NCBI GenBank assembly: GCA_965115825.1
Contig: OZ220464.1
Span: forward strand, 1,668,437 to 1,732,436
DNA: 64,000 nt
Reading direction: 5' to 3'
From: Dehalococcoidia bacterium
GTDB taxonomy: Bacteria; Chloroflexota; Dehalococcoidia; Lucifugimonadales; UBA3495
In this document: positions 9,322 through 42,977 of the stretch, piece after piece
Numbering within the stretch: the first letter of the stretch is position 1
Layout of the letters: every line of letters begins with the position of its first letter
Notes under the pieces: generated by a model
What the model was told of the DNA's origin: nothing
Seen by the model: the letters and a program-made list of their open reading frames with translations, nothing else
The model's database searches: none
Made by a program: the position numbers and the translations under genes

Positions 9322-9329
9322 TGCAAGGG

Positions 9330-10360
9330 GTTGTCAGAATCAGGATTTTCGGGATTTTCGGATTTTCAGGATTGGAGGTTTGTTCCTATGATGAGCTGCG
9401 GCTTTCGCCGAAATGAAGGTTGAAGCGCTGGCATAGCAACGTCGGGGTAGTGGGAATTGGAATGGTTGACGGCGGGGTTTTGCTAGTGATGCGGAGGCCG
9501 GGGGTTGGCGCGGGGGTTTGGCCGGTGGATGTTCTGCCGGGGATGCGGAGGAGGGGGTTGTCAGAATCAGGATTTTCGGGATTTTCGGATTTTCAGGATT
9601 GGAGGTTTGTTCCTATGATGAGCTGCGGCTTTCGCCGAAATGAAGGTTGAAGCGCTGGCATGGCAACGTCGGGGTAGTGGGAATTGGAGTGGTTGACAGC
9701 TGGGTTTTGCTAGTGATGCGGAGGCTGGGGATTGGCGCGTGGGTGGGTTGCGCGGGTTGGTGTTGATGGGCTGTTAGGGGGTTTGGCCGGTGGATGTTCT
9801 ACCGGGGATGCGGAGGAGGGGGTTGTCAGAATCAGGATTTTCGGGATTTTCGGATTTTCAGGATTGGAGGTTTGTTCCTATGATGAGCTGCGGCTTTCGC
9901 CGAAATGAAGGTTGAAGCGCTGGCATGGCAGCGTCGGGGTAGTGGGAATTGGAATGGTTGACGGCGGGGTTTTGCTAGTGATGCGGAGGCTGGGGATTGG
10001 CGCGTGGGTGGGTTGCGCGGGTTGATGTTGATGGGTTGTTAGGGGGTTTGGCCGGTGGGTATTCTGCCGGGGATGCGGAGGAGGGGGTTGTCAGAATCAG
10101 GATTTTCGGGATTTTCGGATTTTCAGGATTGGAGGTTTGTTCCTATGATGAGCTGCGGCTTTCGCCGAAATGAAGGTTGAAGCGCTGGCATGGCAACGTC
10201 GGGGTAGTGGGAATTGGAGTGGTTGACAGCTGGGTTTTGCTAGTGATGCGGAGGCCGGGGGTTGGCGCGTGGGTGGGTTGCATGGTTGACGGCGGGGTTT
10301 TGTAGGTGATGTGGAGGCTGGGGGTTGGCGCGTGGGTGGGTTGTGCGGGTTCATGTTGAT
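9330..10360. repeat. tandem intergenic repeat, 4 copies of about 227-270 bp
   Basis: Copies start at 9330, 9557, 9822 and 10087 with GTTGTCAGAATCAGGATTTTCGGGATTTTCGGATTTTCAGGATTGGAGGTTTGTTCCTATGATGAGCTGCGGCTTTCGCCGAAATGAAGGTTGAAGCGCTGGCAT. The first ~115 nt are identical in all four copies and the remainder diverges by substitutions and indels. Confidence 0.9.
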
Positions 10361-10431: not shown

Positions 10432-11757
10432 TCAGGAGGTTTGACCGGTGGGTGTTTTGCCGGGGATGAGGAGGGAGACGAGGAGGCCGATGAAGTAGAT
10501 GGCGGCGGCGATGTAGAAGCCGTACTGCCAATCGAACCACTCCACCGGGCCGAAAATCATGAACGCGGCTACGGCGCCGAAGAGGGTATTGTTGCCCCAC
10601 ATGAGGCCGAGGAAGCTGGACTCGAGGCGCCGGCCGGCGGCGATGTCGGCGGCGGCGGCCTGGGTCAAGTTGTTCACTGAGAAGTTCATGACGCCGTAGA
10701 TGGCGACGAAGACGGTTATCCAGTAGGTGTATCCGTCGCGGCCAGCCCAGATTACGGCGAGGGTGAGGAGGGTGGTGGCGGCCATGATGAAGACGATGAG
10801 GGGACGGCGGCCGATTTTGTCGGAGAGGGCACCTATGATGGGGCCGGCGAGTATGCCGGGGCCAACCATGAGGGCGACGTGGGCGGCGGCCTGGAAGGAG
10901 TTGACGCCGAGGGCGTTGGTGAGGTAGAGGGGGATCAAGAAGACTAGGGAACGGTCGGCCATGCCGCGGACGGCGGAAACGGTGAAGATGGCCCACATTC
11001 CGGTGCCCCGGAAGGCGTCTTTCATGCCGGCCCAGTTGGCGCGGATGCGCTCACCAATGTCGACGTTTTCGGGGCGTTCGCTGCCGGCGTGGCGGAGGAG
11101 GATGAAGATGAGGACGGTAGCAACGAACATTATGGGGGTGCTGAATCCGAGGACCCAACGCCAGTCGATGGCGCGCCAGGGGAGCTGCCAACTGACTTCA
11201 ACGGCGGCTTCGCCGGCGCCATCGCTCCAGATTACTGCGCCCAGCACAAGGGCGCCGGCGACCATGGGGCCGAGGACGTCGCCGATGCTGCCGGTGGAAC
11301 GGTGCATTGAGATGAAGAGGCCGCGGCGCTGGGGGAAGCGTCGGGCCAGGAGCCCCAGAGCGGGGGGATGCCAGAGGGCGCTGCCCATGGATCCCAGAGC
11401 CAGGGCGCAGAGAATCAGCGCGTAGGAGGGGGCGATGGACATGAGCAGATAGCCCAGGCCAATCATAAAGGTGCTGATGGACAAGACCCAGGCAACCCGA
11501 TGGTGGAACAGGTCAACCAGCACGCCGCCGGATACGCTGGTCAGGCCGCCGAATATGGAACGAACGGCGACGATGTAGCCTACTTGGAGCGCGCCGAGGC
11601 CGAGATCGGCGGCGATAACGGTGGTGAGCACGGGGATGCTGTGGGCGTAGAGGTGCTCGAAGGCGTGGGCTCCGATGAGGGTGGTGGCCATGACGGAGCC
11701 TTTGGTGCGGGGCTCGGCGGCAGGGGAGGGAGGGCTAACGCCGGCTGCCTGTGCCAT
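10432..11757 (-). CDS. MFS transporter
   Basis: 441-aa ORF with about 12 hydrophobic segments and an MFS loop motif (LARRFPQRRGLFISM). Confidence 0.75.
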   Translation of the reverse strand: MAQAAGVSPPSPAAEPRTKGSVMATTLIGAHAFEHLYAHSIPVLTTVIAADLGLGALQVGYIVAVRSIFGGLTSVSGGVLVDLFHHRVAWVLSISTFMIGLGYLLMSIAPSYALILCALALGSMGSALWHPPALGLLARRFPQRRGLFISMHRSTGSIGDVLGPMVAGALVLGAVIWSDGAGEAAVEVSWQLPWRAIDWRWVLGFSTPIMFVATVLIFILLRHAGSERPENVDIGERIRANWAGMKDAFRGTGMWAIFTVSAVRGMADRSLVFLIPLYLTNALGVNSFQAAAHVALMVGPGILAGPIIGALSDKIGRRPLIVFIMAATTLLTLAVIWAGRDGYTYWITVFVAIYGVMNFSVNNLTQAAAADIAAGRRLESSFLGLMWGNNTLFGAVAAFMIFGPVEWFDWQYGFYIAAAIYFIGLLVSLLIPGKTPTGQTS

Positions 11758-12085: not shown

Positions 12086-12249
12086 ATGACTACTCGGATT
12101 TATACAGCATCAAAAACCCGCTCAAATAACCGACCTGGCTGGAGCGTGACGTTTACGCACCCGCGCCGTAGCGACGGACGCGGCAAGCTAGGACTGAAAA
12201 TGCGGCGCGGATTGGGTACCACGGATGATTCTGAGGCTGAGCGCCTGGT
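12086..12249 (+). pseudogene. 5' fragment of a gene (possibly tyrosine-integrase N-terminal arm domain) truncated by the CRISPR trailer
   Basis: An AAGGAGG RBS precedes an ATG encoding MTTRIYTASKTRSNNRPGWSVTFTHPRRSDGRGKLGLKMRRGLGTTDDSEAERLV. This resembles integrase N-termini (RPxGxW..Y/F.xP....LGT.D..EAE.L). The reading frame then runs straight into half a CRISPR repeat at 12250. Confidence 0.35.
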
Positions 12250-15200
12250 TGTGCGGGGGAGCCCTCCGGCAAATCGGTACTGCGTCCCGCCGGTGGGGTC
12301 TATCCCCGCGTGTGCGGGGGAGCCGGTCAACGTAGCCGAACCCGGTGCCGGAAGTCAGGTCTATCCCCGCGTGTGCGGGGGAGCCCGGGTGCGCAGTTCA
12401 CGATGCGCTACCTGGATGGGTCTATCCCCGCGTGTGCGGGGGAGCCTGACCAGCGTGTCGCAGGCTACCGTCTCGGCCGGGTCTATCCCCGCGTGTGCGG
12501 GGGAGCCAGCAACGACCTCGGGCCGGCTATACGTTCGTAAGGTCTATCCCCGCGTGTGCGGGGGAGCCAACGCAACGAGGCCCGGCCCCGTGTTCTGTAT
12601 CGGTCTATCCCCGCGTGTGCGGGGGAGCCATGTCAACGAGTAGATCGTTGGCAGCGTTCCGAGGTCTATCCCCGCGTGTGCGGGGGAGCCGGCCGCCAGA
12701 CTCATCAAGCCGTACGACACCCCGGTCTATCCCCGCGTGTGCGGGGGAGCCGAAAGGCGGTCAAACGGAAGGCTACCACGAGCGGGTCTATCCCCGCGTG
12801 TGCGGGGGAGCCGTCGTGTTCAGCAGCGCCGCCAACGCCGTGTCGCCTCTATCCCCGCGTGTGCGGGGGAGCCGTACTACACCAACCGGTGGCTCAATGC
12901 GCGCACGGTCTATCCCCGCGTGTGCGGGGGAACCTACGGATACATGCAGAACCCCTATGAAGTGCGGGGTCTATCCCCGCGTGTGCGGGGGAACCAGCCT
13001 GACCTCAGTCACCGCCGGCGGGCCTATCGGTCTATCCCCGCGTGTGCGGGGGAACCATATCTTGCGGACGTTGACCGTATTATCCGCAGGGTCTATCCCC
13101 GCGTGTGCGGGGGAACCACCGACGGCTCCCCATCGTGCCGGTACAGCCCCGGTCTATCCCCGCGTGTGCGGGGGAACCACCGTCGGCCAGTCCGCATAGT
13201 AGGCGGTCAGGGGTCTATCCCCGCGTGTGCGGGGGAACCATGGCATTAGGGCCTCCTTTTCGGCGAGGTGATGGTCTATCCCCGCGTGTGCGGGGGAACC
13301 GCCCGGACTGTACCTATGCCCTGATTGCGGCGGGGTCTATCCCCGCGTGTGCGGGGGAACCGCCAGAACCGCCGCCGATGCCGGGGCGCATCCTGGTCTA
13401 TCCCCGCGTGTGCGGGGGAACCCCGGCCTGTCGCGGACGGTCGGACAGTCAGTCCGGTCTATCCCCGCGTGTGCGGGGGAACCCCGGAGGGATACAATGG
13501 CAGTCCACGTAACTAAGGTCTATCCCCGCGTGTGCGGGGGAACCGGTTGGCGGGGGTTTTGGGTAATGGTGTAAATGGGTCTATCCCCGCGTGTGCGGGG
13601 GAACCACCGGGCAGGGGCCGCGCCATACCTCTTTGCCGGGTCTATCCCCGCGTGTGCGGGGGAACCCGCGCCGGCACCCCCGCCGTCTCGGCAATGTCCG
13701 GTCTATCCCCGCGTGTGCGGGGGAACCTGGCCTTTTGAGACAGACTTGGCTCGTATTCTAGGTCTATCCCCGCGTGTGCGGGGGAACCCTGCGGCCTGGT
13801 CAGCAGCATGGCGACGAGAGCGGTCTATCCCCGCGTGTGCGGGGGAACCGCCCCCACCCGGGCAGTGTACTGCGGCGCCCTGGGTCTATCCCCGCGTGTG
13901 CGGGGGAACCGGGCAGGGGTACACAGTGCCAGGGGACGGGCGGCGGTCTATCCCCGCGTGTGCGGGGGAACCCCCTCACCTTCGCCCTCAAACGCGGCTC
14001 CCCCGGGTCTATCCCCGCGTGTGCGGGGGAACCGTCCGCTGCCACTGAGCCGAATTCAGGTTCTGAGGTCTATCCCCGCGTGTGCGGGGGAACCTATTCA
14101 GCGTATTCTTTCCCCTCCTGAAAGGCGGGTCTATCCCCGCGTGTGCGGGGGAACCCCCAGGCCCAACTTTCCGCCGCCGGCGTGGGGCGGTCTATCCCCG
14201 CGTGTGCGGGGGAACCTGGCGGTCTCAAAAAGAGAGGGTGTTAACCCGGGGTCTATCCCCGCGTGTGCGGGGGAACCACAGCAACCCCGCCTTCACGGGC
14301 AACCAAATCCGGTCTATCCCCGCGTGTGCGGGGGAACCCCGACGCCTGCGCGACCCGGAGCGGCCAAATGGGGTCTATCCCCGCGTGTGCGGGGGAACCC
14401 ATCGAAAACCGCCTGTACCACGAGACCTGGGGGGTCTATCCCCGCGTGTGCGGGGGAACCTAATTTGACGCTATCTACCATATGACTAGGCAAGGTCTAT
14501 CCCCGCGTGTGCGGGGGAACCGAGCAGGCGGCGCCGGGGCGGATAGCGCACGCCTGTCTATCCCCGCGTGTGCGGGGGAACCGATATTGACGGTATTGGC
14601 GGCAGTGCCGCGGACGGTCTATCCCCGCGTGTGCGGGGGAACCCCCAGGCAGGCCGCCACATCCATTTGCGCATTCGGTCTATCCCCGCGTGTGCGGGGG
14701 AACCCAAAAAGCCGGTCGCCTCGTCGTAGTCGTAGAAGGTCTATCCCCGCGTGTGCGGGGGAACCCTCATAGATGGCGGCGATTTTGGCTTTGATAGTGG
14801 TCTATCCCCGCGTGTGCGGGGGAACCGTGCAGCGGCTACTGGTACTGTACCCACTGCGGGGTCTATCCCCGCGTGTGCGGGGGAACCCGGGAGGTTGTCC
14901 AAGATGATCTGGATAGCGGGGGTCTATCCCCGCGTGTGCGGGGGAACCGATGTCAAGCTGGAAGTCCGATAGCAGCAGGCCGGTCTATCCCCGCGTGTGC
15001 GGGGGAACCGCCGAGGACGGCAACGGGAACTACCGCGCGGCAGGTCTATCCCCGCGTGTGCGGGGGAACCGGATGCGGCCCGGCATCGGCGGCGGTTCCG
15101 GGGGGTCTATCCCCGCGTGTGCGGGGGAACCCGATAGCGCAAGCCGATGCAAAACACGCCGCCAGGTCTATCCCCGCGTGTGCGGGGGAACCCCCACCGG

Positions 15201-21200: not shown

Positions 21201-24200
21201 GTCTATCCCCGCGTGTGCGGGGGAACCCTAGGACGGCAAAAGTTGCGACTGGCAATGATGGGTCTATCCCCGCGTGTGCGGGGGAACCGCGCCAGTGTTG
21301 ACGTCGCTGCCGGCCTCCGCAGGTCTATCCCCGCGTGTGCGGGGGAACCGTGGCCATGGCATTCCAGTTCGCCACTTGCGTGGGTCTATCCCCGCGTGTG
21401 CGGGGGAACCGGCCCGGCCCGTTGGCCGATTACGCCGGCAAAGGGTCTATCCCCGCGTGTGCGGGGGAACCTCACGCCCCATCCCCGGGGGTTCATCCGG
21501 GAGGGGTCTATCCCCGCGTGTGCGGGGGAACCAACTATCACGATTGGCAACATCGCCGCCGCCGAGGTCTATCCCCGCGTGTGCGGGGGAACCTTGAAGT
21601 CCGACGGGATGTTGCCGCCGGCGAAAGGTCTATCCCCGCGTGTGCGGGGGAACCTAAGTCGCTCCACCGCCCACAAGGCCGCCAACTGGTCTATCCCCGC
21701 GTGTGCGGGGGAACCGCCGCGCCGCGTCGGTATGCCATAGCATCGCGGGGTCTATCCCCGCGTGTGCGGGGGAACCCCGGCCCGGCCCGTCGGTTACCAG
21801 GGCCGGAGCGGTCTATCCCCGCGTGTGCGGGGGAACCCTTCGGGCCGCCGCATTCGGGGCATAGGTACAGGGTCTATCCCCGCGTGTGCGGGGGAACCCG
21901 ATGTAACGCAGGGGCACGAGGTTGCGATCCGGGTCTATCCCCGCGTGTGCGGGGGAACCCCGGATACCGCTACCGGACTACCATGGGGTCAGGGTCTATC
22001 CCCGCGTGTGCGGGGGAACCCGTCTGATTTACCGCGACCCCCGCACTTATTACGGTCTATCCCCGCGTGTGCGGGGGAACCCCCACGCCTTGGGCCTGCA
22101 TCAGGATGTCCAGCGGTCTATCCCCGCGTGTGCGGGGGAACCGGTCGTGGTGGTACATCCGTCAGTACGACTCGGGGTCTATCCCCGCGTGTGCGGGGGA
22201 ACCCTTCGGGCCGCCGCAATCGGGGCATAGGTAACGGGTCTATCCCCGCGTGTGCGGGGGAACCCTTGGACGTATAGGCCTTCGGGCCGCCGCATTCGGT
22301 CTATCCCCGCGTGTGCGGGGGAACCTTGACTTGCTGGCGATCAGTCCAGCAAGCCGGAGGTCTATCCCCGCGTGTGCGGGGGAACCAGCGGCGGCGGCGG
22401 CCAACGCGGGCCGGGCCGGGGTCTATCCCCGCGTGTGCGGGGGAACCACGCAGGCGTAGCATACCGCCACATTGCGGGGGGGTCTATCCCCGCGTGTGCG
22501 GGGGAACCGTCATCGCGAATGTCCACCACCTTCGTGATGAAGGTCTATCCCCGCGTGTGCGGGGGAACCCAGTAGTCGCAGACGAGGGCCAGACGAGGGG
22601 TGGGTCTATCCCCGCGTGTGCGGGGGAACCTGGCCGGTGAGCTGGTGAACCCCCCGCGTCAACGGTCTATCCCCGCGTGTGCGGGGGAACCTGATTTTCT
22701 CGCCGCCAATTTTGCCAATGGAAGGGTCTATCCCCGCGTGTGCGGGGGAACCTGGCCGGTGAGCTGGTGAACCCCCCGCGTCAACGGTCTATCCCCGCGT
22801 GTGCGGGGGAACCGAGGTCAATCGGGTTCATGATGTTCTCCTATTGGGTCTATCCCCGCGTGTGCGGGGGAACCATTGAGCACTGGTGCGACCTGTTGGG
22901 CCTCGGGGGTCTATCCCCGCGTGTGCGGGGGAACCCGTGAAGGCGCACCTGGAACCGACGCACCAGACGGTCTATCCCCGCGTGTGCGGGGGAACCTGCC
23001 CCGGGTAGCCGATGGCGGCGTGAAAATAGGGTCTATCCCCGCGTGTGCGGGGGAACCACCTATGGTGTCAACAGCCCCGCCCGGGTAGCGGGTCTATCCC
23101 CGCGTGTGCGGGGGAACCGAACGCAAGCGGCGGCTGCGGCGGGGGATGGACGGTCTATCCCCGCGTGTGCGGGGGAACCACGGGGATGCTCAAAAAGGTA
23201 TGTCCGTCAATGGGTCTATCCCCGCGTGTGCGGGGGAACCTGCCACCCGTCCCGGTCAATGCGACGCATTAAGGGTCTATCCCCGCGTGTGCGGGGGAAC
23301 CTGGATGGACGCGATAGCCGGCCGCCCGCCCGGCGTGTCTATCCCCGCGTGTGCGGGGGAACCTGCCACTCCGTGCCGGGGGCGTCGGGGGTAATGGGTC
23401 TATCCCCGCGTGTGCGGGGGAACCCGGCCCGCGACGTGGACGCCGACTGGATTTGCAGGTCTATCCCCGCGTGTGCGGGGGAACCAGCCTGAGGGTCATA
23501 ACTGCGGACTGCTCGAACGGTCTATCCCCGCGTGTGCGGGGGAACCATCGTCGCCGCCGGACGATGCGCCGGCGGGAAGGGTCTATCCCCGCGTGTGCGG
23601 GGGAACCCCCCAGGTCTCGTGGTACAGGCGGGATTCGACGGGTCTATCCCCGCGTGTGCGGGGGAACCTCCGTCCATCATCAGTCCACCCATCCGCCGCG
23701 CGGTCTATCCCCGCGTGTGCGGGGGAACCCCGTCGCCTGCGCGACCCTGACCGGCCCAGTGGGGTCTATCCCCGCGTGTGCGGGGGAACCACCGCCCACA
23801 CCTCGAAAGTGTGATAGCCCGGAGGTCTATCCCCGCGTGTGCGGGGGAACCGATGTCCAGCTTGGTCTCGATTACGGCCAGCCGGGTCTATCCCCGCGTG
23901 TGCGGGGGAACCCGACATCGCCGCTGAAAATGACCTCAAAGGCAGGGTCTATCCCCGCGTGTGCGGGGGAACCGGGACGGGCGGCTTGTCAGCGGTCAAT
24001 GCGTGGGGTCTATCCCCGCGTGTGCGGGGGAACCGCGTGCCGAAAGCGGCCAGTGAGTAGCGCATAGGGTCTATCCCCGCGTGTGCGGGGGAACCACTGC
24101 CATAGTGCGCCGTCCAGTCGGGCGGCAGGGTCTATCCCCGCGTGTGCGGGGGAACCTAGGCAGGGCCGCCACGCGGCCCGCTCCATTTGGGTCTATCCCC

Positions 24201-32879: not shown

Positions 32880-32909
32880 TCTTGGCGAATTGATACTTTG
32901 TATTTTATA
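32880..32909 (-). promoter_or_regulatory. CRISPR leader (very short AT-rich intergenic segment)
   Basis: Only 30 nt separate the cas2 stop (32910..32912) from the first repeat. The minus-sense sequence TATAAAATACAAAGTATCAATTCGCCAAGA contains a TATAAA box and an ATCAA (IHF-like half site). A 7-bp inverted repeat, GGCGAAT (32884..32890) and ATTCGCC (32912..32918), brackets it. Confidence 0.45.
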
Positions 32910-33218
32910 TCATTCGCCTCGGGGACGGGACTGACCGTATCTTACCAAGTACACGCCGTCAGCGTCTATAACTTCCTTGGGCGGTTCTCCCAAACTTCTG
33001 ATGCTCTGCTGTCCCGGCGCCGACGGATCTCTCCAAGTCATCACGATTGAGCCGTTGCCCAACTCGCCGTGCCAACGCGCCAGCACATCCCAGATACGTT
33101 CTCTGATGCCGCTGGTCAGATCCGGAGACGTGTACACCCCCGGGGCTATCTCCAGCATCACCGATGCCAGAAACCCCCGATACCGCCCTTCTACGTTCAC
33201 TGTCACGACCACCGTCAT
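32910..33218 (-). CDS. cas2: CRISPR-associated endoribonuclease Cas2 (I-E)
   Basis: From the ATG at 33218 it reads MTVVVTVNVEGRYRGFLASVMLEIAPGVYTSPDLTSGIRERIWDVL..., collinear with E. coli Cas2 ([31 protein letters not shown]...). It sits last in the cas operon. Confidence 0.9.
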   Translation of the reverse strand: MTVVVTVNVEGRYRGFLASVMLEIAPGVYTSPDLTSGIRERIWDVLARWHGELGNGSIVMTWRDPSAPGQQSIRSLGEPPKEVIDADGVYLVRYGQSRPRGE

Positions 33219-33223
33219 CAGCG

Positions 33224-34189
33224 CTATCCCTCTGAGGAGCTCTCGTCCAGCCAATCTTCCAGCAGACTCACATCATCAACGCTTCTCGGCGCCGGCTTGC
33301 TCTCCAGTGGCGGCACGTCCTGAAACAGGGTTTTGATGCGGTCGATCATCTTGGAAATAACCCGCTCCGTCCGTAGCAGATCGCCCGTGGTTCGCCTGGT
33401 GTGCCTTTCTATATCCAGTCGGTTATTTCCGGCGACCTCGGCCGCCGATTTGAACGCCGCCGGCAGCAGGACCGTATCCCGGAAGAGGTCTGCAATGTCC
33501 AGGGCAAACGCTTCGCCGCTGTGCTCGTGGATGAACCCGAGCTGCGGGATTGCCCCCAGCGATGTCACTGCAATTACCGCCGCTGCCGTAACCGCAACTG
33601 AAGCGTGGTTGATGGCTTGATTCGGAATGTCTGCCGCCATGGGGTTGGCCCGGTCATAGCGCCGCCCCCGCCACTCTATGCCATACTGCCGCGACAAGTT
33701 CTGATAGGTGCGTTTCATCCGCGCGCCTTCGATGCCGCGCAATGCGGTGATGTCCATATGGGGCAGCACTTCGCCCAGACGCAGGGCATACATTTTCCGG
33801 GCAATCGTGATTCGGCTACCCTCCGGGTCGCCCCAGGCCCGCATCTGCCGCCGCGCGATGTCTGAGGTGTCCGGCATCAAGGGCGGCGCCGTATAGCACC
33901 GCACGCCATCCTCTCCGACGGCCACTAATCCGGTGCCGTGTCGCGCCATCAGCCGCAGGGCATCGTGGCTTACCGTAGAACCGGGGCCCAACAGGATCAT
34001 GGAAAGGCTCTGAAAGGGAATACCGTATTCGCCGGCCGCCAGCGGGCTGGCGGCGTCCGGCCCGGCCTGCCGTTCAAAACGGAGCGTACCATCCCGTACC
34101 GTCAGAGCGCCGCGGGACAACCAAAGCAGCCCGTGACGGTCGGCGTGGGGTATCCGCGCCGTTTCCAGTCCTAACCTTCCTCTCAGCAT
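33224..34189 (-). CDS. cas1: CRISPR-associated integrase Cas1 (I-E)
   Basis: 321-aa ORF with a GAGGAG RBS. Cas1e-like features include the N-terminal beta domain (LLWLSRGALTVRDGTLRF) and the helical catalytic domain (NHASVAVTAAAV...GFIHEHSG). It lies directly upstream of cas2. Confidence 0.93.
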   Translation of the reverse strand: MLRGRLGLETARIPHADRHGLLWLSRGALTVRDGTLRFERQAGPDAASPLAAGEYGIPFQSLSMILLGPGSTVSHDALRLMARHGTGLVAVGEDGVRCYTAPPLMPDTSDIARRQMRAWGDPEGSRITIARKMYALRLGEVLPHMDITALRGIEGARMKRTYQNLSRQYGIEWRGRRYDRANPMAADIPNQAINHASVAVTAAAVIAVTSLGAIPQLGFIHEHSGEAFALDIADLFRDTVLLPAAFKSAAEVAGNNRLDIERHTRRTTGDLLRTERVISKMIDRIKTLFQDVPPLESKPAPRSVDDVSLLEDWLDESSSEG

Positions 34190-34295: not shown

Positions 34296-35018
34296 TTAGG
34301 CAGGTCGGAGCAGCAGCATTCCGTACCCGTAGGCGCGATGACGACCCAAACCGTTGGCCAGCAATTTGGAGAAGGCGTGGCCATCGGTAACGACGAGGTT
34401 GCCCCGCACCAGCGCGTCCGGCCCTTCGCTGTGCCGGACGCCCCGTCTGCGGATGGCGCGGGTGCGCTGAAACGACTGCAGCGTAGCCGACTTCAGAGTG
34501 GCTCCGCCGCGAGCGTCAAATTGGCGGGCCAGCCATTCTTGATAGACCTGCTCGCGGCTGCGGGGCATTTCCCCTATCTCATACCGTTCCGCCTCCAGTT
34601 GGAAGGCGTCGCGCTCCTTCCCCGGCCTGGAAGCGGCGTTTTTGGTGGCGCGAACTACAGGCCGAATCCTGACTTCAAAGCCCAGCTTCAAGTCGGACTT
34701 CCATTCGGTCGGCATCGGTTTGCTCTCGATACGATTGGCTGGCATGACGGCGGCCTGCAATGGGCAGGCGAAAATGTCAGCAGCTTCCCGCAGCGCATCG
34801 GCGTCGGCGCGGGTGTAACCGTACAAACAGCCTCTGGAAACACCCTGGGAGGTCATCAATCGGAAGGGCTTGGGCGCCAGGTCTTTGCCAAGAGATTCAA
34901 CCAGCAGACAGTGCATAGCGTGGTCGGGGTCTTGCAGCCGGCGCATTCCCATCCAGCGCTGGAAATGGCGCACGCTGATTTCAGCGCGTATCATCTGCAA
35001 CGGGGCTTGGTTATTCAT
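34296..35018 (-). CDS. cas6e: Cas6e (CasE) crRNA endoribonuclease
   Basis: From the ATG at 35018 (MNNQAPLQMIRAEISV...). The C-terminal GLGRHRAYGYGMLLLRP matches the glycine-rich G-x-G-x-x-K/R-x-x-G-x-G-L-L motif of Cas6e. Its position after cas5e fits, and it overlaps the cas5e stop by 8 nt. Confidence 0.85.
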   Translation of the reverse strand: MNNQAPLQMIRAEISVRHFQRWMGMRRLQDPDHAMHCLLVESLGKDLAPKPFRLMTSQGVSRGCLYGYTRADADALREAADIFACPLQAAVMPANRIESKPMPTEWKSDLKLGFEVRIRPVVRATKNAASRPGKERDAFQLEAERYEIGEMPRSREQVYQEWLARQFDARGGATLKSATLQSFQRTRAIRRRGVRHSEGPDALVRGNLVVTDGHAFSKLLANGLGRHRAYGYGMLLLRPA

Positions 35019-35763
35019 TTGGCTCTTCCTTGCTTGGGGCGAACTCTTCGCGGTCAATCTTTCCCTCAAACATCCACCGACCGCCGCCGTGCAGCCCGGA
35101 AACCCAGTTGCGCTGGTCGGTAAGCAGATGCGGATAAGGGCGGTCGCTTTTGACGCCGGCAGCCGCTTCTTCCTGAGGCCATTGCATTCGTATGCCGTCC
35201 CCAACGGCGGCGCATCTGGGCAGGGGCGTGTTCAGCAGCGCCGCCAACGCCGTGTCGCCTTCGGCAAACCCGGCGAACATCGGCGCGGACGGCAGACACG
35301 GCTTGCGGCCGATGAACAGCGGACGTCGGGGCTCCTGGATGGCCGCCGCCAGCTCGTCCAGTACCGGCGCATCATCCGCCGGTTCCAGTCGCAAGGCCAC
35401 TGAGACCCGCATATCGGCGTAGTAATCGCGGTAGCGTAGCCAATTGGTGTATTGCCCCCCGCCCCGGCCTTCAGGCGCGCCTCGGGTGGTCCAACCCCGG
35501 TCGGTATTGGTAATGGCGGCTGACTGAAAATCCGTCATACGTACGCCGCCGGCCGGTTCGCGGTCAATCCGGGCGGCGAAGACCAAGCGATCCTGCAAGT
35601 CCTGGTGTCGCTCCCGTTCCACGCGCCGCCAACCCAGCGCATTGGCGAACAGGCCGGTCAGCATAGACATGGCGGGGAAGGGACGGATGACGCCGTAGTT
35701 GTCGATGGTTTCGCCTCCGAAAGCCAGCAGGGGACTTTCCAGGTTCAGTATCAGATGCCGCAT
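35011..35763 (-). CDS. cas5e: Cas5e (CasD) Cascade subunit
   Basis: MRHLILNLESPLLAFGGETIDNYGVIRPFPAMSMLTGLFANALGWRR is the typical Cas5e N-terminus, and gene order supports the call. The gene contains the 34-nt sequence matched by the array spacer at 12815..12848. Confidence 0.9.
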   Translation of the reverse strand: MRHLILNLESPLLAFGGETIDNYGVIRPFPAMSMLTGLFANALGWRRVERERHQDLQDRLVFAARIDREPAGGVRMTDFQSAAITNTDRGWTTRGAPEGRGGGQYTNWLRYRDYYADMRVSVALRLEPADDAPVLDELAAAIQEPRRPLFIGRKPCLPSAPMFAGFAEGDTALAALLNTPLPRCAAVGDGIRMQWPQEEAAAGVKSDRPYPHLLTDQRNWVSGLHGGGRWMFEGKIDREEFAPSKEEPNE

Positions 35764-36957: not shown

Positions 36958-37587
36958 TTAGTCATTCGACTGCTGTTCACTCTGTTGTTTGCTGCGCCGA
37001 GCCGCGCGGTAGTAATCGCGGGCGATGCGACGCCGCCCTGCTTCGGCCCGTTCGTCATCGTATCCTTCGTTCAGGATGTACGCCGCCATCTCGCCCCAGT
37101 CGAAAGATACGTCCGCGGCGGCCATCATACGGAACATCCGCGCCAGCAGAACGCGAAGCATATCGCCCCGAGCAGTCAGGAGGCGGTTCAGCCGGCTCTC
37201 GCTGTAGTATCCAGCCTCTCCCCTGTTGGAGCTGTCGCCCAGGTACAGCGCCCGGCCCACCGACATACTCCCGCTATGCGCTGAACGGCCGGCTATGCCA
37301 TTGCCGCCGGCGGTGCGCGTCATGAGCGCCATGCCGTGCAGAATCAGCCCCCACTTGCGCTCGATGTCAGGGTTGCCCAGCAATTCCTCGCCGGCCATCA
37401 GCCGCCAGAAAGATGCCGTGTCCGGTTCATCGGGATCCATGCGCCGCAGGCCGGCCAGTCCACCACGGTCGCGGTCAGGCATGGCTGCCAACTCGCGGGC
37501 GAGACGAAATGCAATGTCGCCCCATGAGCGGCCGGTTGATTCCGCTGCCGGCGCGGATGTGGTTTCAGTGGTTTCGGAGGTGGTCAT
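36958..37587 (-). CDS. cse2: Cse2 (CasB / Cas11e) small subunit
   Basis: 209-aa helical protein between cse1 and cas7e. It has an ATGA overlap with the cse1 stop and a GGAGGG RBS. The segment LRRMDPDEPDTASFWRLM is Cse2-like. Confidence 0.85.
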   Translation of the reverse strand: MTTSETTETTSAPAAESTGRSWGDIAFRLARELAAMPDRDRGGLAGLRRMDPDEPDTASFWRLMAGEELLGNPDIERKWGLILHGMALMTRTAGGNGIAGRSAHSGSMSVGRALYLGDSSNRGEAGYYSESRLNRLLTARGDMLRVLLARMFRMMAAADVSFDWGEMAAYILNEGYDDERAEAGRRRIARDYYRAARRSKQQSEQQSND

Positions 37588-39149
37588 AGGTTACCCTCCT
37601 GGTTATCAGCGAACAGGAACGGCAGGCCGCTACTTCCGCGCAGCCGGCCTTCAAAAAGCCCGCTTGCATTCTCGCGGGCGCGGTAACGGTGGATAGCCGG
37701 GCAGGGCAGCGAATCCGTCGCTTCGGACAGAATGCTGCGGGCGTGGTCAACTATGCCGTCTTTACCGTTCATCAGCCATGTTTTGCGGACGCGCTCACGC
37801 TCAATACGGTCGTCGTGTTCGAATTCGTCCTGCAAGGCGTCAAAAAAGTCGGCATCAACAATTACGTCCAATTTGTTCGCCCATGGATTTGCCAGAGAAC
37901 GCTGCTCGGCGTTTGCGTCACCGGCCTCACCCCGTGCGATGAACGTGGCGACAGCATGGCGCAGAATTCTCTGGACAATGCCGACTTGGTTAATCCGTTC
38001 CTGCGCGATTGTCCCCAAATCCTCTGCGCTGTCGCTGCCGTTGCGGCGCAGCATAGCGGTCTTGGCTTTACTCCGTATTGGAACTCTCCGCTCGTAGTAG
38101 CCTTCCGTTTTACCCTGCCCTCGCACCATCCCGCGCGCTACCAGTTGCATGGTTTCGCCTGAACGCAGCTCATCTGGCGTAGGCTTAAGCAGGTCGGGCA
38201 GCTGCCAATCGAACAAATACTCGTTGACGCGCTTATAAGTGAAACCACCATTCGCCAAAGTGAGCGGCAGCCCATCCCGATTTGGATTGAATGGCGTCCA
38301 CGGGTCGCCGGTGCGCCCTTTGAGTTCTTTGCCCTCAATCCGCGCTGCTTTGGAACTAGCTTTGATTCCGTGCAGCTGACCGTTCTCGCCGCTACGCAGT
38401 CGGACGCGCCGGCAAACCTCAATGTAGTACGGGGCCAGATCGTTTAACAACAGCCCTTCGAGTCTGGCGCCATCCCACGGCAGTACCCACAACAAGTTAT
38501 GCTTCTCTCTGCCGGCCGGATAAATCGTCAGCAGAGCCGAAATGTCCCGACGGACATGGGCGCCGATTCCACCTGGCGGCGCCAAACTGAACGCCGGACG
38601 GCTGCCCAACCCGCCGTTCATCCGGGATATGCCGTGGTTGCCAGCACCACCATATCCTTCCATGGTTTGCAGAGTGACTAACGCAAAGAGCCAGTCGTCA
38701 ATGCTGCCTTGCGACGCTACTGACGATTTCAGGTCATGGCACTTGGACGTAACCAGCATATCCAGCTCATCCGCAGTCACTAGGGTGTTCTTATATTCTG
38801 TCTCCTTGCCCGGGGAGGTTGCCGGCGGCTGCATAAACGCTGGCCGTGTGATGTCTTCCACTACCATGTGCCACGGCTCGTCGTCGGGCCAGTCCGGCGT
38901 TAGCCCTCTTATCAGCTCGGCCCATTCCGCAGCGTCTGCCGGAGGGGATTCCGTGCCGGCTTTTTGCATAGCCATGGCGCCAAGCTGTACCAGGAAAGCG
39001 TGCCAAGCGTGCCGCTGGTGCGGACGCAAAGCGGGAAATGTCTCTACTGCGTCCGCTATCAGCGCCGCGTACACCTCTGGAAGAGTCGATAAGCGCGTCT
39101 CGCTAGCCGTGGCAACCCTGATTAGGGGTTCTGTTAGAATGTTGAGCAT
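37584..39149 (-). CDS. cse1: Cse1 (CasA / Cas8e) large subunit
   Basis: From the ATG at 39149 (AAGGAG RBS) it reads MLNILTEPLIRVATASETRLSTLPEVYAAL...LRPHQRHAWHAFLVQL, the typical Cse1 N-terminus. The gene lies after cas3. Confidence 0.87.
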   Translation of the reverse strand: MLNILTEPLIRVATASETRLSTLPEVYAALIADAVETFPALRPHQRHAWHAFLVQLGAMAMQKAGTESPPADAAEWAELIRGLTPDWPDDEPWHMVVEDITRPAFMQPPATSPGKETEYKNTLVTADELDMLVTSKCHDLKSSVASQGSIDDWLFALVTLQTMEGYGGAGNHGISRMNGGLGSRPAFSLAPPGGIGAHVRRDISALLTIYPAGREKHNLLWVLPWDGARLEGLLLNDLAPYYIEVCRRVRLRSGENGQLHGIKASSKAARIEGKELKGRTGDPWTPFNPNRDGLPLTLANGGFTYKRVNEYLFDWQLPDLLKPTPDELRSGETMQLVARGMVRGQGKTEGYYERRVPIRSKAKTAMLRRNGSDSAEDLGTIAQERINQVGIVQRILRHAVATFIARGEAGDANAEQRSLANPWANKLDVIVDADFFDALQDEFEHDDRIERERVRKTWLMNGKDGIVDHARSILSEATDSLPCPAIHRYRARENASGLFEGRLRGSSGLPFLFADNQEGNL

Positions 39150-39244
39150 TGTCAAGGGCTCCTTTTGGGATCCCGCATTTGGCGCACTTGGGTTCTGTGT
39201 AACATCAGATGCCAGCGCTGTCAACTCTTGCGCCGGGGCGGTAA

Positions 39245-41908
39245 TTACAGCGCGCGCAACCCTCGCCGGTCGTAGCGAAACTGCCGTTTGCCCACGCTAA
39301 ACTCGAACCCTCCGTCGTCGGTTGCACTTGGTTCTACCGCATCCGGCGTTTCTGTGCCGGCCAGCCATCGCGTAGTTAACGCCAGCCGGTCTATCGTGCG
39401 CGTTGGGTCGAAGGGGCTATCCGGCGCGGGGCTGAGGGCTATTTCCACCCGGTCGTCGCCCAGCCGGGTGCGTATCCGCTCCTCGTCGCTGGGAAAGCAG
39501 ACTTCCTGGTTGTCGGTAAAGAAGGATTTGTTCCGCTGCGCTACGTGGCCCCGCGCCGCCTGTACGTCGGCGATGAGGGCGCCCGCCGTGCTGATGGCGT
39601 GCTCCTGCCAAGCGTCGCCCAGCTGGGCGGTGATTTGCGCGAGGGTTTCCGGGTGCATGGCCCGCTCTACCAATTCCCGGTTCATCTCGGGTATCCGCCA
39701 TTGGGGATGTTCTTTAATCAGCCGCCGCGTAGCCTCCAGGATGTGCAGGTTCCGGTACACTCCGCCGTAGGGGCCCAGGCCGTTGGCGTTCTGGCCGCCC
39801 CCTCTCGCCAGCAGCGGCGAAAGGTCGTCCCCCGGCGTCAGCACGATGCAGGTCGGCTTGTCGTAGCCCGATGGCCGGTAGTCGTCGTTCTCCCGGCGCC
39901 GGTGCAACCGGCCAATGCGTTGCAGCAGCACGTCGGCCGGGCACAGGTCGGTAATCAGCAGGTCGGCGTCGATGTCCAGAGACTGCTCCAGCGTCTGGGT
40001 ACCCACTACCGCGAGGCCGCCGGAGCTGCGCCCCGCCTTGCCTAGACGCAGTTCTATTTCCGCGTCCATCGGCTCCCGGTCTTCGGCGGCAAACCTCCCG
40101 TGATGCAGCGTATGAAAGCCGTTGACGGAGAACAGCAGCCCGGCGTCTCCGGGGCCGGCCCGTTCTTCTATTGTCTGCTGCGTGCGGATGGCATAACCGA
40201 CTGTGTTCCGAACCACCAGCACTTTCGCTCCGGCCCGCGCCGCCGCCAGCGCCAGCGCCGCCACCGCGTCGTACTCCCGCATCTCCGGCGCCGCCCGAAT
40301 GCTCACGTTCTTGCTGCGGTTATTTTCTCCGGCGCCGACCATACCCAGCTCCGAGGTTACCGCCGGATAAGGCGCATCTATCGCCTCGGCCAAGGGAGGC
40401 ACATCGTCTGCGCTGCCTCCGCTGCTGCGCCTCCAACGACACCTAGCCGTCGCCCCCAGCGTCGCGGACATCAGGAGGGCGTACCCGCCGGCGCCGATGT
40501 GCGCTTCCAGCACGGCGGCAAGAACCTCACTCATGTAGGCGTCCGAGGCGTGAACTTCGTCCACTACCAGCAGGTTGCGCGACAGGCCGGCTGCCCTGAG
40601 GTGGGCGTTCTTGACCTTTAGCGCCCCCAGCATCGCCTGATCCACCGTGCCTACGGCAATTTGAGCTGTGAGAAAGCGCTTGGGGCTTTCAGCGGCCCAC
40701 CGCCGCCCGTCGCTGGCGTGGTCATCCCACCACACTTCGTAGTTATGCAGACGCTGTCCCGAGGACTCGCCGGCCCGCAGATACCCCGGCACCGCCAGAA
40801 CCGGCTCCGGCCCCGCGCCGTCCTGGAACAGACGCCCGGCGAATTCTCGCACCCGGTCGAAAATCTGCTTTGCGGCGGCCCGGGTCGGCAGCGCGAAGTA
40901 CATGCCATCCACCAGCCCCGCCTCGTACATTCGCGCAAACCGCCACAGCGCGGCCTCCGTTTTGCCGGAGCCGGTCTCCGATTCTATAATGACCAGGCGG
41001 TCGTCGAGCGGCGTGGAGCTGGCTTTAAGTTGGATGGAGTTGGCCTGCCCGATATGCGGGAACAGTCCGGTTATGTCCGGCGCGCCGGGGCGCGCAATGC
41101 GCTGCCGCTGGCCGGCGAGGTCCAGGCCGACGGCGCGAATGGCAGCGCGAGCTTGCTGGCGGGCAGTACATATGTAATCGTCCTGAGGATCTCCAACGTA
41201 CTTAAACCAGACCTCGTTGGAGCCGATCCAATCCGCCAGGTTGCATAGTCCCAGAAACTGATGCTGGAAGGCAGGAGCCGACGGCAGCGGCGGGCCGTTA
41301 TCCGCAAACGCTGCGGGAAACCACCGGCGTATCAACCGTCCGATACGGGTCACGCACTCCTGTGGGTTCAGTTCCCCAAATCGCCTCCATAGCTGTGGGT
41401 GTTTGGCCCGCCGGCCCTCAAGCTGCAAGGGTCGCCCGTGATGCGACAGGGACGCCACCAGCAGCCCGCAGACTGCTTCTCCTCCGCAGTCGTCCCAAGT
41501 CAGAAGGTCGTCCTGCCATTTCAGGGCGTCAAAGAACCAGTCGGCGGTTTCACCGTCGTTATCTTGCAACACGGGCGTCAAGTCCAGAGTGTGGCCGGCG
41601 CGTTCAGGCCGGCGTTCGCCCGGCGGGAAGTCTTCATTGCGCCAGATTTGCGTCTGGAACCCAACGTTCACCTTGCCGATGTCGTGCAGGGCTGCGAAAA
41701 CGCACAGACGCGCCACAGTAGTGGCGCCAATATCGTCCTGCCCGGCGGTATGCGCCAGCCGCCGCCGTATAATCGGCTGTTCCAACAGCGCTTCGAGACA
41801 CGCTCCAACATCCGCCAGGTGGTGCTCTAGCAGGTGGATGCGACTGGGGTCGCTCCGGTCGGATTTTCCCCAAAATCGGTACGTGTATGGTTTTGGCGTT
41901 TCCCGCAT
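39245..41908 (-). CDS. cas3: Cas3 HD nuclease / SF2 helicase (I-E)
   Basis: HD domain (LLEHHLADVG...ALHDIGKVNVGFQ), helicase motif I (ESETGSGKTEAAL) and motif II (VVDEVHA). The ATG at 41908 follows GGAG. The longest ORF would begin at a TTG at 41947. Confidence 0.95.
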   Translation of the reverse strand: MRETPKPYTYRFWGKSDRSDPSRIHLLEHHLADVGACLEALLEQPIIRRRLAHTAGQDDIGATTVARLCVFAALHDIGKVNVGFQTQIWRNEDFPPGERRPERAGHTLDLTPVLQDNDGETADWFFDALKWQDDLLTWDDCGGEAVCGLLVASLSHHGRPLQLEGRRAKHPQLWRRFGELNPQECVTRIGRLIRRWFPAAFADNGPPLPSAPAFQHQFLGLCNLADWIGSNEVWFKYVGDPQDDYICTARQQARAAIRAVGLDLAGQRQRIARPGAPDITGLFPHIGQANSIQLKASSTPLDDRLVIIESETGSGKTEAALWRFARMYEAGLVDGMYFALPTRAAAKQIFDRVREFAGRLFQDGAGPEPVLAVPGYLRAGESSGQRLHNYEVWWDDHASDGRRWAAESPKRFLTAQIAVGTVDQAMLGALKVKNAHLRAAGLSRNLLVVDEVHASDAYMSEVLAAVLEAHIGAGGYALLMSATLGATARCRWRRSSGGSADDVPPLAEAIDAPYPAVTSELGMVGAGENNRSKNVSIRAAPEMREYDAVAALALAAARAGAKVLVVRNTVGYAIRTQQTIEERAGPGDAGLLFSVNGFHTLHHGRFAAEDREPMDAEIELRLGKAGRSSGGLAVVGTQTLEQSLDIDADLLITDLCPADVLLQRIGRLHRRRENDDYRPSGYDKPTCIVLTPGDDLSPLLARGGGQNANGLGPYGGVYRNLHILEATRRLIKEHPQWRIPEMNRELVERAMHPETLAQITAQLGDAWQEHAISTAGALIADVQAARGHVAQRNKSFFTDNQEVCFPSDEERIRTRLGDDRVEIALSPAPDSPFDPTRTIDRLALTTRWLAGTETPDAVEPSATDDGGFEFSVGKRQFRYDRRGLRAL

Positions 41909-42621
41909 CGTATCTCCGGCAATCTTACCTTGTTTTTCTGCCCTCAACCTGCCGGCTCCAGATATTATCAGACACGATGCAATCGTGCTGGCTAGCGGGG
42001 CAGCTACGTATCCGCGGCGTGCCTGGCAAGTGGGGCCGGTTTTCTCGCTGGCCGGGAATGATGGGGGAGGTTGGGGATGAAGGCGGGCGAAAACGTGGGA
42101 GGTGGAGGGCGGCTGAGACGGGAGGGTTGGTTCACGGTTGTTTCTCCTTTGGTTGGTCGGTTAGGTTTTGGTGGTTGGTTAGTTGGTTGGGTTCCTGGGG
42201 TTCAGGATGTCGGCGCTACGGCCTGAGAGCGTGGCTTGCTATTTACGTCCTAGTCTTGCGCGTGCTAACGGCTGCTTGCGCAGTACCCGTCCTCGCGCAG
42301 CGGTGGTGACTCCCGCCGTGCTGAGTGCGCCAGCCGGGTAATGTGACCGACCTCCGGCGCACCACAGTGGTGCAATGGATCCGACGTGCCGCAATGTACT
42401 AGTTGCGGCGGTTTAGACCGTGTTATCCTGAACCCCGTTGAACTCCTGTTTTTAGCCTCCTAGTTAGGTTGTGATGTCGGGCGGTGTCCTAGCCGGTGCA
42501 CCAGCGGGGACGGCAGCGGCCTTGGGGAGTAGCGCTTTGCTCCTTGGGGCGCGCCGGGCGCCTGACAATGGATATTATAGCACGATGGTACGGTTTTGCA
42601 AACGGCGGATGTCATCATTTT

Positions 42622-42660: not shown

Positions 42661-42888
42661 TACGGCCGCGGTTCGTGAGATTGGGAGATGGTGTTCCGCC
42701 TTTCGCCAGAAAGCCGGTGCCGGGGGTGGGCGGCCGTTGTCTAAACTGTGGTTTGGGTGATTGGAGTTGTGGGCTGACTGTGGATTTTCGGCTAGGGGTA
42801 GCGTGTGGTAGGGGCAAGGCGTCGTTATGTGGCAGTGGGGTTACAATGATTGGGGGATCAGCAGCAACCGGACAAATGCCGGGATCCA

Positions 42889-42977
42889 GGCTATCCCCGC
42901 GTGAGCGCGACGCCGGGTGGCCATGACTTGGGTTCCGCCTAGATGTGCAGGCTATCCCCGCGTGGGCGCGCGGTTGG
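42889..42977 (-). CRISPR. degenerate two-repeat mini-array or array remnant upstream of cas3
   Basis: GGCTATCCCCGCGTG occurs at 42889 and 42950, exactly 61 bp apart and in the same orientation as the main array. It matches the handle-proximal part of the repeat (minus sense CACGCGGGGATAG-CC, with a 1-nt deletion). The other hairpin arm is degenerate. Confidence 0.5.

Follow-up and report, generated by a model that had tools for sequence, protein, structure and literature searches.

A spacer matching the resident cas5e gene lies in a probable out-of-register unit of a long type I-E CRISPR array

The stretch of DNA analysed here (the window), 64,000 nucleotides (nt) of the Dehalococcoidia bacterium assembly GCA_965115825.1 (contig OZ220464.1, positions 1,668,437 to 1,732,436), carries a type I-E CRISPR system with eight cas genes and an array of 337 spacers. 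One of these, spacer 329 counted from the leader, copies a piece of the locus's own cas5e gene, and the unit that holds it is bounded by a 28-nt duplication displaced by 2 nt from the repeat. We consider it probable that a mis-registered insertion by Cas1-Cas2 inside the array captured this fragment of the resident cas5e and thereby yielded an inert CRISPR RNA (crRNA).

The 34-mer CGTGTTCAGCAGCGCCGCCAACGCCGTGTCGCCT occurs only twice in the window, exactly, at 12815-12848 in the array and at 35227-35260 in cas5e, and no such match arose by chance in 100 shuffles. An earlier sequence-only reading had reported this near-perfect copy and placed it in the array; both statements stand, the unit lying between the repeats at 12785-12812 and 12846-12873, as spacer 329 of 337 from the leader. 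It is the tenth unit from the trailer, as claimed, if the degenerate terminal unit is counted, and otherwise the ninth. Self-targeting was defined as at least 90% identity to a site outside the array on the same replicon, and spacer 329 satisfies this whether read in the register of acquisition (33/33) or in that of the array, described below (32/33); it is the sole one of the 337 that matches the window outside the array. The cas5e open reading frame (ORF) reads through the match site, where it encodes GDTALAALLNT, a motif conserved in this Cas5e clade. The target comprises codons 168-180, with 31 consecutive nt complementary, and the crRNA is complementary to the template strand. As far as sequence can tell, these observations support spacer 329 as a real self-derived spacer against the locus's own intact cas5e. 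The features on which the argument turns are as follows.

12297-32879, minus strand: type I-E CRISPR array of 338 repeats of 28 nt and 337 spacers.
35227-35259, minus strand: protospacer in cas5e, coding sense, with AA directly 5' on the minus strand (35260-35261; TT on the plus strand).
12815-12847, minus strand: insert as acquired, 33 nt, GGCGACACGGCGTTGGCGGCGCTGCTGAACACG in crRNA sense, 33/33 identical to cas5e.
12787-12814, minus strand: trailer-side copy of the shifted 28-nt target-site duplication, AC plus repeat positions 1-26.
12848-12875, minus strand: leader-side copy of the shifted 28-nt duplication, its AC (12874-12875) being the last 2 nt of spacer 328.
12846-12873, minus strand: aberrant repeat, the sole one of 338 that ends ...ATAGAGG and not ...ATAGACC in crRNA sense.
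12813-12845, minus strand: guide in the predicted Cascade register, 33 nt, CGACAC...CACGAC, 32/33 identical to cas5e, with GG in the slot of the protospacer-adjacent motif (PAM).

The blocks 12787-12814 and 12848-12875 are identical to one another, and the identity breaks off at either edge of each. In crRNA sense the elements follow one another as ...GGTGTAGT-AC / GGCTCC...GGGGATAGA / GGCGACACGGCGTTGGCGGCGCTGCTGAACACG / AC / GGCTCC...GGGGATAGA / CC / spacer 330. The two terminal G bases of the aberrant repeat extend the cas5e match 2 nt into the repeat, and the last 2 nt of the unit (AC) differ from the gene (CC). Neither point had been remarked on in the sequence-only reading. Both hairpins are intact and the unit still measures 61 nt, the period kept by 332 of the array's 337 units (332 of the 337 spacers are 33 nt long); from this fixed unit length and the intact hairpins we infer the register in which Cascade would hold the guide. 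At the level of sequence, a shifted-duplication model covers every base of the unit without a substitution.

No phage or plasmid target was found for any spacer in any of the collections searched, and the PAM was derived from overlapping spacers, one of which gives the upstream flank of the other. AA stands directly 5' of the 33-nt spacer in nine of 14 such flanks in the window, in five of six in relatives and in 23 of the 33 flanks recovered in a larger pooled set, an AA-type PAM for this I-E system. The cas5e fragment lies in the canonical orientation, its PAM-proximal end abutting the upstream repeat, and this orientation together with the AA flank supports a genuine product of Cas1-Cas2. 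The earlier claim of an AA flank is correct, though it holds solely for the register that gives the 33/33 match. As read from the sequence, the guide lacks the marks of interference competence in its predicted Cascade register, since the PAM slot there is GG and the upstream repeat ends GAGG, not GACC.

The duplicated bases also bear on the site of insertion. The 28 nt of the duplication begin with AC and so include sequence of the leader-side spacer, AC being the last 2 nt of spacer 328, whereas the leader ends GA. A new repeat is copied from the leader-proximal repeat. Had the aberrant repeat once been leader-proximal, its GAGG end would be expected in younger repeats, yet all 328 leader-side repeats end ...GACC and the aberrant end is found in none of them. 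Locus L034 of a relative (12971-13825) is a positive control for the inheritance of a leader-end shift: there the final A of the leader was duplicated through a 1-nt shift at that end, and 15 younger repeats inherited the variant end. Taken together, the AC from the neighbouring spacer and the failure of the defect to be inherited make it most likely that spacer 329 was inserted internally (ectopically), in which case its position in the array would give no age. The sequence-only reading counted about 327 later additions to the array and concluded that the cell had kept a guide against its own effector gene while still able to adapt. Neither that count nor the long retention of a working guide is supported, since the AC of spacer 328 within the duplication and the defect-free younger repeats point to an internal event, and position is then not age.

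Two other routes to the unit were rejected, a shifted integration at the leader end (the leader has GA as its last bases, and the defect is missing from younger repeats) and a fusion of arrays by recombination within a repeat, by which the observed repeats are not reproducible. The identity of spacer 329 to the resident cas5e allele (33/33) against 30/33 to that of the closest sister strain, L081, is mild evidence from sequence that the acquisition came later than the split from the L081 lineage.

The shifted-duplication signature is not confined to this unit. A scan for Cas5e gave 80 loci in relatives (L001-L080; best Cas5e identity 78%) with 5184 further spacers, and the set examined for the signature, window included, held 5550 repeats in 89 array segments. 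Cases were repeats uniquely altered in their own array at the last 1 or 2 bases, and the signature was scored where the closing 1 or 2 bases of the unit are the same as those at the end of the upstream spacer. In the 2-base class it was present in three of four cases from the relatives only (L053, L063, L066; 7.9% in the control, P = 1.8e-3) and in four of five with the window included (against the same 7.9%, P = 1.8e-4). The 1-base class, five cases from relatives and two from the window, had it in six of seven (26% in the control, P = 1.8e-3), and in four of five when restricted to relatives. All true cases have inserts of 33-34 nt and an exact 28-nt duplication. Among the same repeats, changes deeper in the repeat, such as A to G at position 26, carried no signature, and shifts in the opposite direction gave no clear signal. 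The sites, other than that of spacer 329, are these.

14555-14582 and 23336-23363 of the window: 1-base cases, repeats ending ...GACA and not ...GACC; the insert of the second unit is 34 nt.
L053 18580, L063 18150, L066 20008, L042 17026 and 17087, L050 15812, L053 20470: signature sites in relatives.

Judged from these sequences, out-of-register internal insertion looks like a rare but recurrent event in this I-E family, affecting about 0.2% of units. Two rare features therefore coincide in the window, the only self-matching spacer of 337 sitting in a class that makes up about 0.2% of units, which is what survivorship would predict if correctly registered self-spacers are lethal.

In the proposed course of events, Cas1-Cas2 would capture a 33-nt fragment of the resident cas5e with a normal AA PAM, and the fragment would enter an internal repeat between spacers 328 and 330, not the leader end. 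Both staggered cuts would fall 2 nt upstream of their normal positions with the 28-nt spacing kept, and gap filling would copy AC plus repeat positions 1-26, not positions 1-28. Cas6e would release a 61-nt crRNA starting AUAGAGGCGACAC, made up of AUAGAGG, CGACAC...CACGAC and a 21-nt hairpin. Its 5' handle would be AUAGAGG against the normal AUAGACC; its guide window would start 2 nt into the captured fragment and end in the duplicated AC, where the gene has CC; and the target positions that Cas8e must read as AA would be GG. Target licensing in type I-E reportedly depends on reading of the PAM by protein and not on pairing of the handle. Cascade would accordingly be predicted not to license Cas3 cleavage at cas5e, where by analogy no recruitment of Cas3 is expected, and the spacer would persist as a harmless, neutral scar, while cells with a correctly registered spacer against their own cas5e would die. 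The unknown control layer that had been offered as one explanation for the coexistence of guide and gene becomes unneeded given a predicted in-register crRNA with a mutated handle and GG in the PAM slot, and the paradox of the self-guide mostly dissolves if that crRNA is, as predicted, inert. Unit 329 resembles classes of non-effective self-spacer that PMC6990116 reports from Stern et al. 2010: as those classes are summarized there (no PAM, a mutated adjacent repeat, pairing into the repeat), it likewise has no in-register PAM, a mutated adjacent repeat and pairing into the repeat. PAM statistics for self-targeting spacers are given in PMC7708048.

Several points weigh against this account. 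It supposes that this particular Cascade would reject GG and would not tolerate the changed handle, while some I-E systems take several PAMs and non-consensus PAMs can still prime adaptation. Spacer 329 lies 20 kb from the leader and its crRNA is a predicted one only. Spacers 328 and 330 were found adjacent in no sister strain, L081 having been read for 128 leader-side spacers and L082, another contig of the same sample, having lost the I-E array; the spurious ORF at 12495-13199, used as a protein query for sister arrays, gave repeat-driven matches only, at about 50% identity. The AC coincidence taken alone has a chance of about 6-8%. The insertion, moreover, hit the first repeat on the trailer side of a boundary in the array (12846-12934; repeats at 12846 and 12907) between the 10 trailer-most repeats, which begin GGCTCC, and the 328 leader-side (younger) repeats, which begin GGTTCC, and this is left unexplained, as is the coincidence that unit 329 adjoins spacer 330, the sole other cas-like spacer.

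A guide that is competent while interference is off would also leave the cell unharmed, whether because the crRNA is not transcribed or processed so far (20 kb) from the leader, because the cas operon is repressed or because an anti-CRISPR is encoded elsewhere. The distance of the spacer from the leader speaks for it, as does the finding that genomes which carry self-targeting spacers are enriched in anti-CRISPRs (PMC7708048). Against it, the cas genes are intact; the array holds many overlapping or duplicated spacers, as after repeated active adaptation; the flanks are housekeeping in content, with no prophage found in the 64 kb; and interference that is merely switched off leaves unexplained why the single self-spacer falls in the single unit mis-registered by 2 nt. 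We regard this alternative as unlikely, though it deserves to be kept in mind.

The fragment could instead have come from a related cas operon of type I-E that is foreign to the cell, carried by a mobile element or by a competing strain, the resident match then being incidental. This is favoured by spacer 330, a piece of a divergent, non-resident cas8e, by the occurrence of the I-E family with identical repeats across several phyla of metagenome-assembled genomes (MAGs), which implies horizontal transfer, and by the conservation of the target motif GDTALAALL across the clade. The resident allele nevertheless matches at 33/33, whereas the closest sister strain reaches 30/33 and none of the 80 relatives exceeds 30/35. 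The 31-nt core has no exact match in the JGI metagenomes or IMG/VR, and the whole array, compared with phage and plasmid collections, gave no spacer-level match, only repeat-level matches on one plasmid. A better foreign match, which the sequence-only reading had itself named as the finding that would make the self-match incidental, was thus looked for in JGI, IMG/VR, the phage and plasmid collections, the 80 relatives and the sister strain, and none was found. An exact-protein look-up of the resident Cas5e returned no record. The unmatched AC, furthermore, would give Thr where homologues almost always have Pro, which fits duplicated array sequence and not a protospacer. A foreign source is accordingly improbable in our estimation.

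Decidedly improbable, too, is a history in which CGACAC...CACGCC was acquired in register at the leader end and was then disarmed by escape mutations that turned CC into GG in the repeat and C into A at position 32 of the spacer. Escape from self-targeting through mismatches or through mutation of a flanking repeat is known (PMC6990116, PMC7708048), and the spacer stands among the old trailer-end units. Three substitutions would be needed, though, two of which would by chance have to recreate the bases of the gene and the third the terminal base of the neighbouring spacer; the gene flank in that register is GG and not the AA of acquisition; and the signature in relatives would be left unexplained.

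That the unit is a selected regulator, its crRNA guiding Cascade to bind cas5e uncut and so to tune the cas operon, we hold to be very improbable. In its favour are the complementarity of the crRNA to the cas5e template strand and the repression of cas promoters by crRNA-like RNAs in other type I systems. Known regulators, though, combine a proper PAM with partial complementarity to promoters, whereas here complementarity is near-full, there is no in-register PAM and the target is coding sequence in mid-operon; unit 329 shows none of the seed-only pairing, proper PAM and promoter target of a CreR/CreA-like element. Even the sister strain's cas5e does not conserve the protospacer (30/33), and the signature is consistent with an integration error that is also found elsewhere, where the inserts are unrelated. 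An assembly artefact, with cas5e sequence put into the array by a chimeric join or by an error of the consensus, is scarcely credible: long arrays are hard to assemble, but the AA-flanked 33-nt insert in canonical orientation, the clean 28-nt duplication and the preserved 61-nt period, together with like architecture in independent assemblies, argue against it.

Spacer 330, the trailer-side neighbour of the insertion, resembles another gene of the operon.

12752-12784, minus strand: spacer 330, a divergent cas8e fragment.
38089-38121, plus strand: resident cas8e site like spacer 330, 24/33 positions, conserved motif RGQGKTEGYYER.

On the plus strand, in gene sense, spacer 330 encodes KGGQTEGYHER where the resident gene has GQGKTEGYYER, and the peptide aligns in frame with the family's most conserved Cas8e motif, RG(Q/E)G(K/G/Q)TEGY(H/Y)ER; the nearest variant is RGGQTEGYYER in L005, at 25/33. 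Its identity as cas8e depends on this in-frame motif, the DNA score (36 bits) being only marginally above controls and reached by two of 5184 reversed spacers. Spacer 330 is best read from its sequence as the memory of a different, foreign I-E operon. A degenerate pattern for its peptide found no match in the JGI metagenomes or IMG/VR.

Spacer 329 (62 bits) and, marginally, spacer 330 are the only spacers that rise above the reversed-spacer controls. Apparent matches of spacers 101, 126, 127 and 253 to cas1 or cas3 of relatives were at the noise level of those controls and were set aside. The idea that targeting of cas genes is a habit of the family was likewise dropped, no good cas gene match being present among the 5184 spacers of the 80 relatives, and the 16 nt that spacer 329 has in common with an L029 spacer proved to be a shared GC-rich motif, not cas5e.

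The partial match of spacer 330 to cas8e (24/33) lies 2.8 kb from the cas5e protospacer, on the opposite strand. A speculative link between the two features would be cross-reactive priming from that cas8e match: Cas3 loaded at the cas8e site would move to the PAM-proximal side, pass cas5e and run into the array, a route that could account as well for the placing of the new unit next to spacer 330. As a tentative generalization, leaderward mis-integration that keeps the 28-nt spacing might recur throughout this I-E family, in about 0.2% of units, and yield dead spacers; it would perhaps be the sole route by which chromosome-derived spacers survive under active interference, and in the present case it was perhaps triggered by cross-reactive priming from spacer 330.

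In Escherichia coli, slipped acquisition by type I-E is said to arise when the choice of protospacer shifts relative to the PAM. The two situations are alike in that the protospacer can contribute bases to the end of a repeat and the duplication keeps a constant size; here, in contrast, the fragment was chosen beside a canonical PAM (AA), and the shift lies in where the array was cut. Donation of the last repeat base by the PAM is described in bioRxiv 10.1101/2022.05.19.492656. Ectopic integration, known mainly from type II-A (McGinn & Marraffini 2016; Achigar et al. 2017, 2021, PMC5338259, PMC7999890; review PMC8047081), likewise adds a spacer-repeat unit inside an array; the present case differs in being of type I-E, in being deduced from natural sequence and in its offset of 1-2 nt with the 28-nt spacing kept. 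Tolerated type I self-spacers, as presented in the accounts of Stern et al. 2010, Wimmer & Beisel 2020 (PMC6990116) and Nobrega et al. 2020 (PMC7708048), are similar in that a chromosomal match stands beside intact cas genes. Here, however, the target is the gene of the system's own Cascade subunit, and the defects of repeat and PAM would stem from one out-of-register integration, not from later mutations. A tolerated self-spacer without an in-register PAM and with an altered adjacent repeat is in itself of an already known kind.

As for why cas5e was sampled, an acquisition hot spot beside the CRISPR array (Levy et al. 2015, as relayed in PMC6990116) and priming by prophage targets (PMC7708048) have both been described. 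The source in the window lies 2.35 kb from the leader and 2.8 kb from the partial match of spacer 330, and either setting could explain the sampling of cas5e; a difference from primed adaptation is that the new protospacer is on the strand opposite the putative priming site.

Self-targeting spacers serve in searches for anti-CRISPRs and hidden regulation, and the unit described here suggests that an apparently perfect self-guide with an AA flank can be defused by a register error of 2 nt. Such an error is missed by spacer-target alignment alone, and inspection of repeat ends and duplicated bases offers a cheap filter before new tolerance mechanisms are proposed. The recurrent signature in natural I-E arrays is perhaps the more interesting by-product: shifted 28-nt duplications are natural-sequence evidence that I-E integrases sometimes insert inside arrays, that the two cuts stay the same distance apart even if they slip along the array, and that spacer order is not always a reliable clock.

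The closest sister strain, L081, shares the chromosomal site, leader and cas genes of the window, the cas genes being 94-99% identical in nucleotide sequence and the leader 99% identical, and it carries an extra HNH-domain gene (L081 6026-6520) between cas3 and cas8e that is absent from the window. None of its 128 readable leader-side spacers is colinear with the window array. Its spacers 59 and 78 are identical to window spacers 141 and 57, in an order that is not colinear, and these two look like independent acquisitions. On L082 (1-9210), another contig of the same sample, the I-E chromosomal site is taken up by a cas module of type I-C together with an I-C array of 46 repeats; the junction falls within a repeat of the I-E array, of which nothing remains but the terminal spacer and degenerate repeats. 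The replacement of the I-E by an I-C module marks the site as a hot spot of CRISPR-Cas module exchange. The more distant loci L001-L080, whose Cas5e proteins are 59-78% identical to that of the window, come from MAGs of Dehalococcoidia, Chloroflexota, Binatia, Caldilineaceae and Entotheonella; most have the same or nearly the same 28-nt repeat and many of their arrays exceed 120 spacers, which suggests that the I-E family is widely spread horizontally within one community type.

The remaining features of the locus are listed below. The crRNA sense is the minus strand, and the leader lies at the high-coordinate end of the array.

32880-33000, minus strand: AT-rich leader, ending ...CGCCAAGA (...AAGA) at the first repeat, not AC.
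32910-33254, minus strand: cas2e, NCBIfam I-E model.
33224-34189, minus strand: cas1e, NCBIfam I-E model.
34296-35010, minus strand: cas6e (casE), NCBIfam I-E model.
35011-35763, minus strand: cas5e (casD), 250 amino acids, intact; NCBIfam Cas5e model, E = 3e-50.
35769 to about 36932, minus strand: cas7, NCBIfam I-E model.
36958-37587, minus strand: cse2, NCBIfam I-E model.
37584-39224, minus strand: cas8e, NCBIfam I-E model.
39245-41947, minus strand: cas3 with HD and helicase domains, NCBIfam I-E model.
12236-12263: degenerate terminal repeat (GGCTCCCCCGCACAACCAGG...) past the last regular repeat, kept in L082 and duplicated there (L082 9123-9210).

The eight I-E cas genes, already judged intact in the sequence-only reading, are all full-length ORFs with I-E model matches and form one minus-strand operon that adjoins the array upstream of the leader. 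Two matches score below a cut-off: Cas8e falls under its curated value (61.5 against 70.05 bits), and Cas3 falls under that of the full-length model while exceeding those of the core-helicase and HD models. The cas5e protein is 96% identical to its sister-strain counterpart, P0002. The consensus repeat in crRNA sense, GGTTCCCCCGCACACGCGGGGATAGACC, is present in 326 copies and comprises the hairpin CCCCGC-ACAC-GCGGGG followed by ATAGACC, a 28-nt repeat with stem-loop and handle as in type I-E; no Rfam family matched the repeats. Many spacers are duplicated or mutually overlapping, in both orientations (46 = 105, 86 = 102, 166 = 168, 195 = 203, and 50, which is 187 in reverse complement), a pattern to be expected if a few targets were sampled repeatedly or by priming.

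Upstream of cas3, two degenerate repeat-like units (42888-42915 and 42949-42976; ...CACGCGGGGATAGCCT) stand 61 nt apart and are probably the remnant of a second small array. The 43 kb that flank the array within the 64-kb window hold housekeeping genes, and no prophage was found in them. Downstream of an MFS transporter gene (10432-11757, minus strand), the region 9327-10281 gives staggered, repeated BLAST alignments against L082, which indicates tandem repeats of a few hundred bases whose copy number differs between strains.

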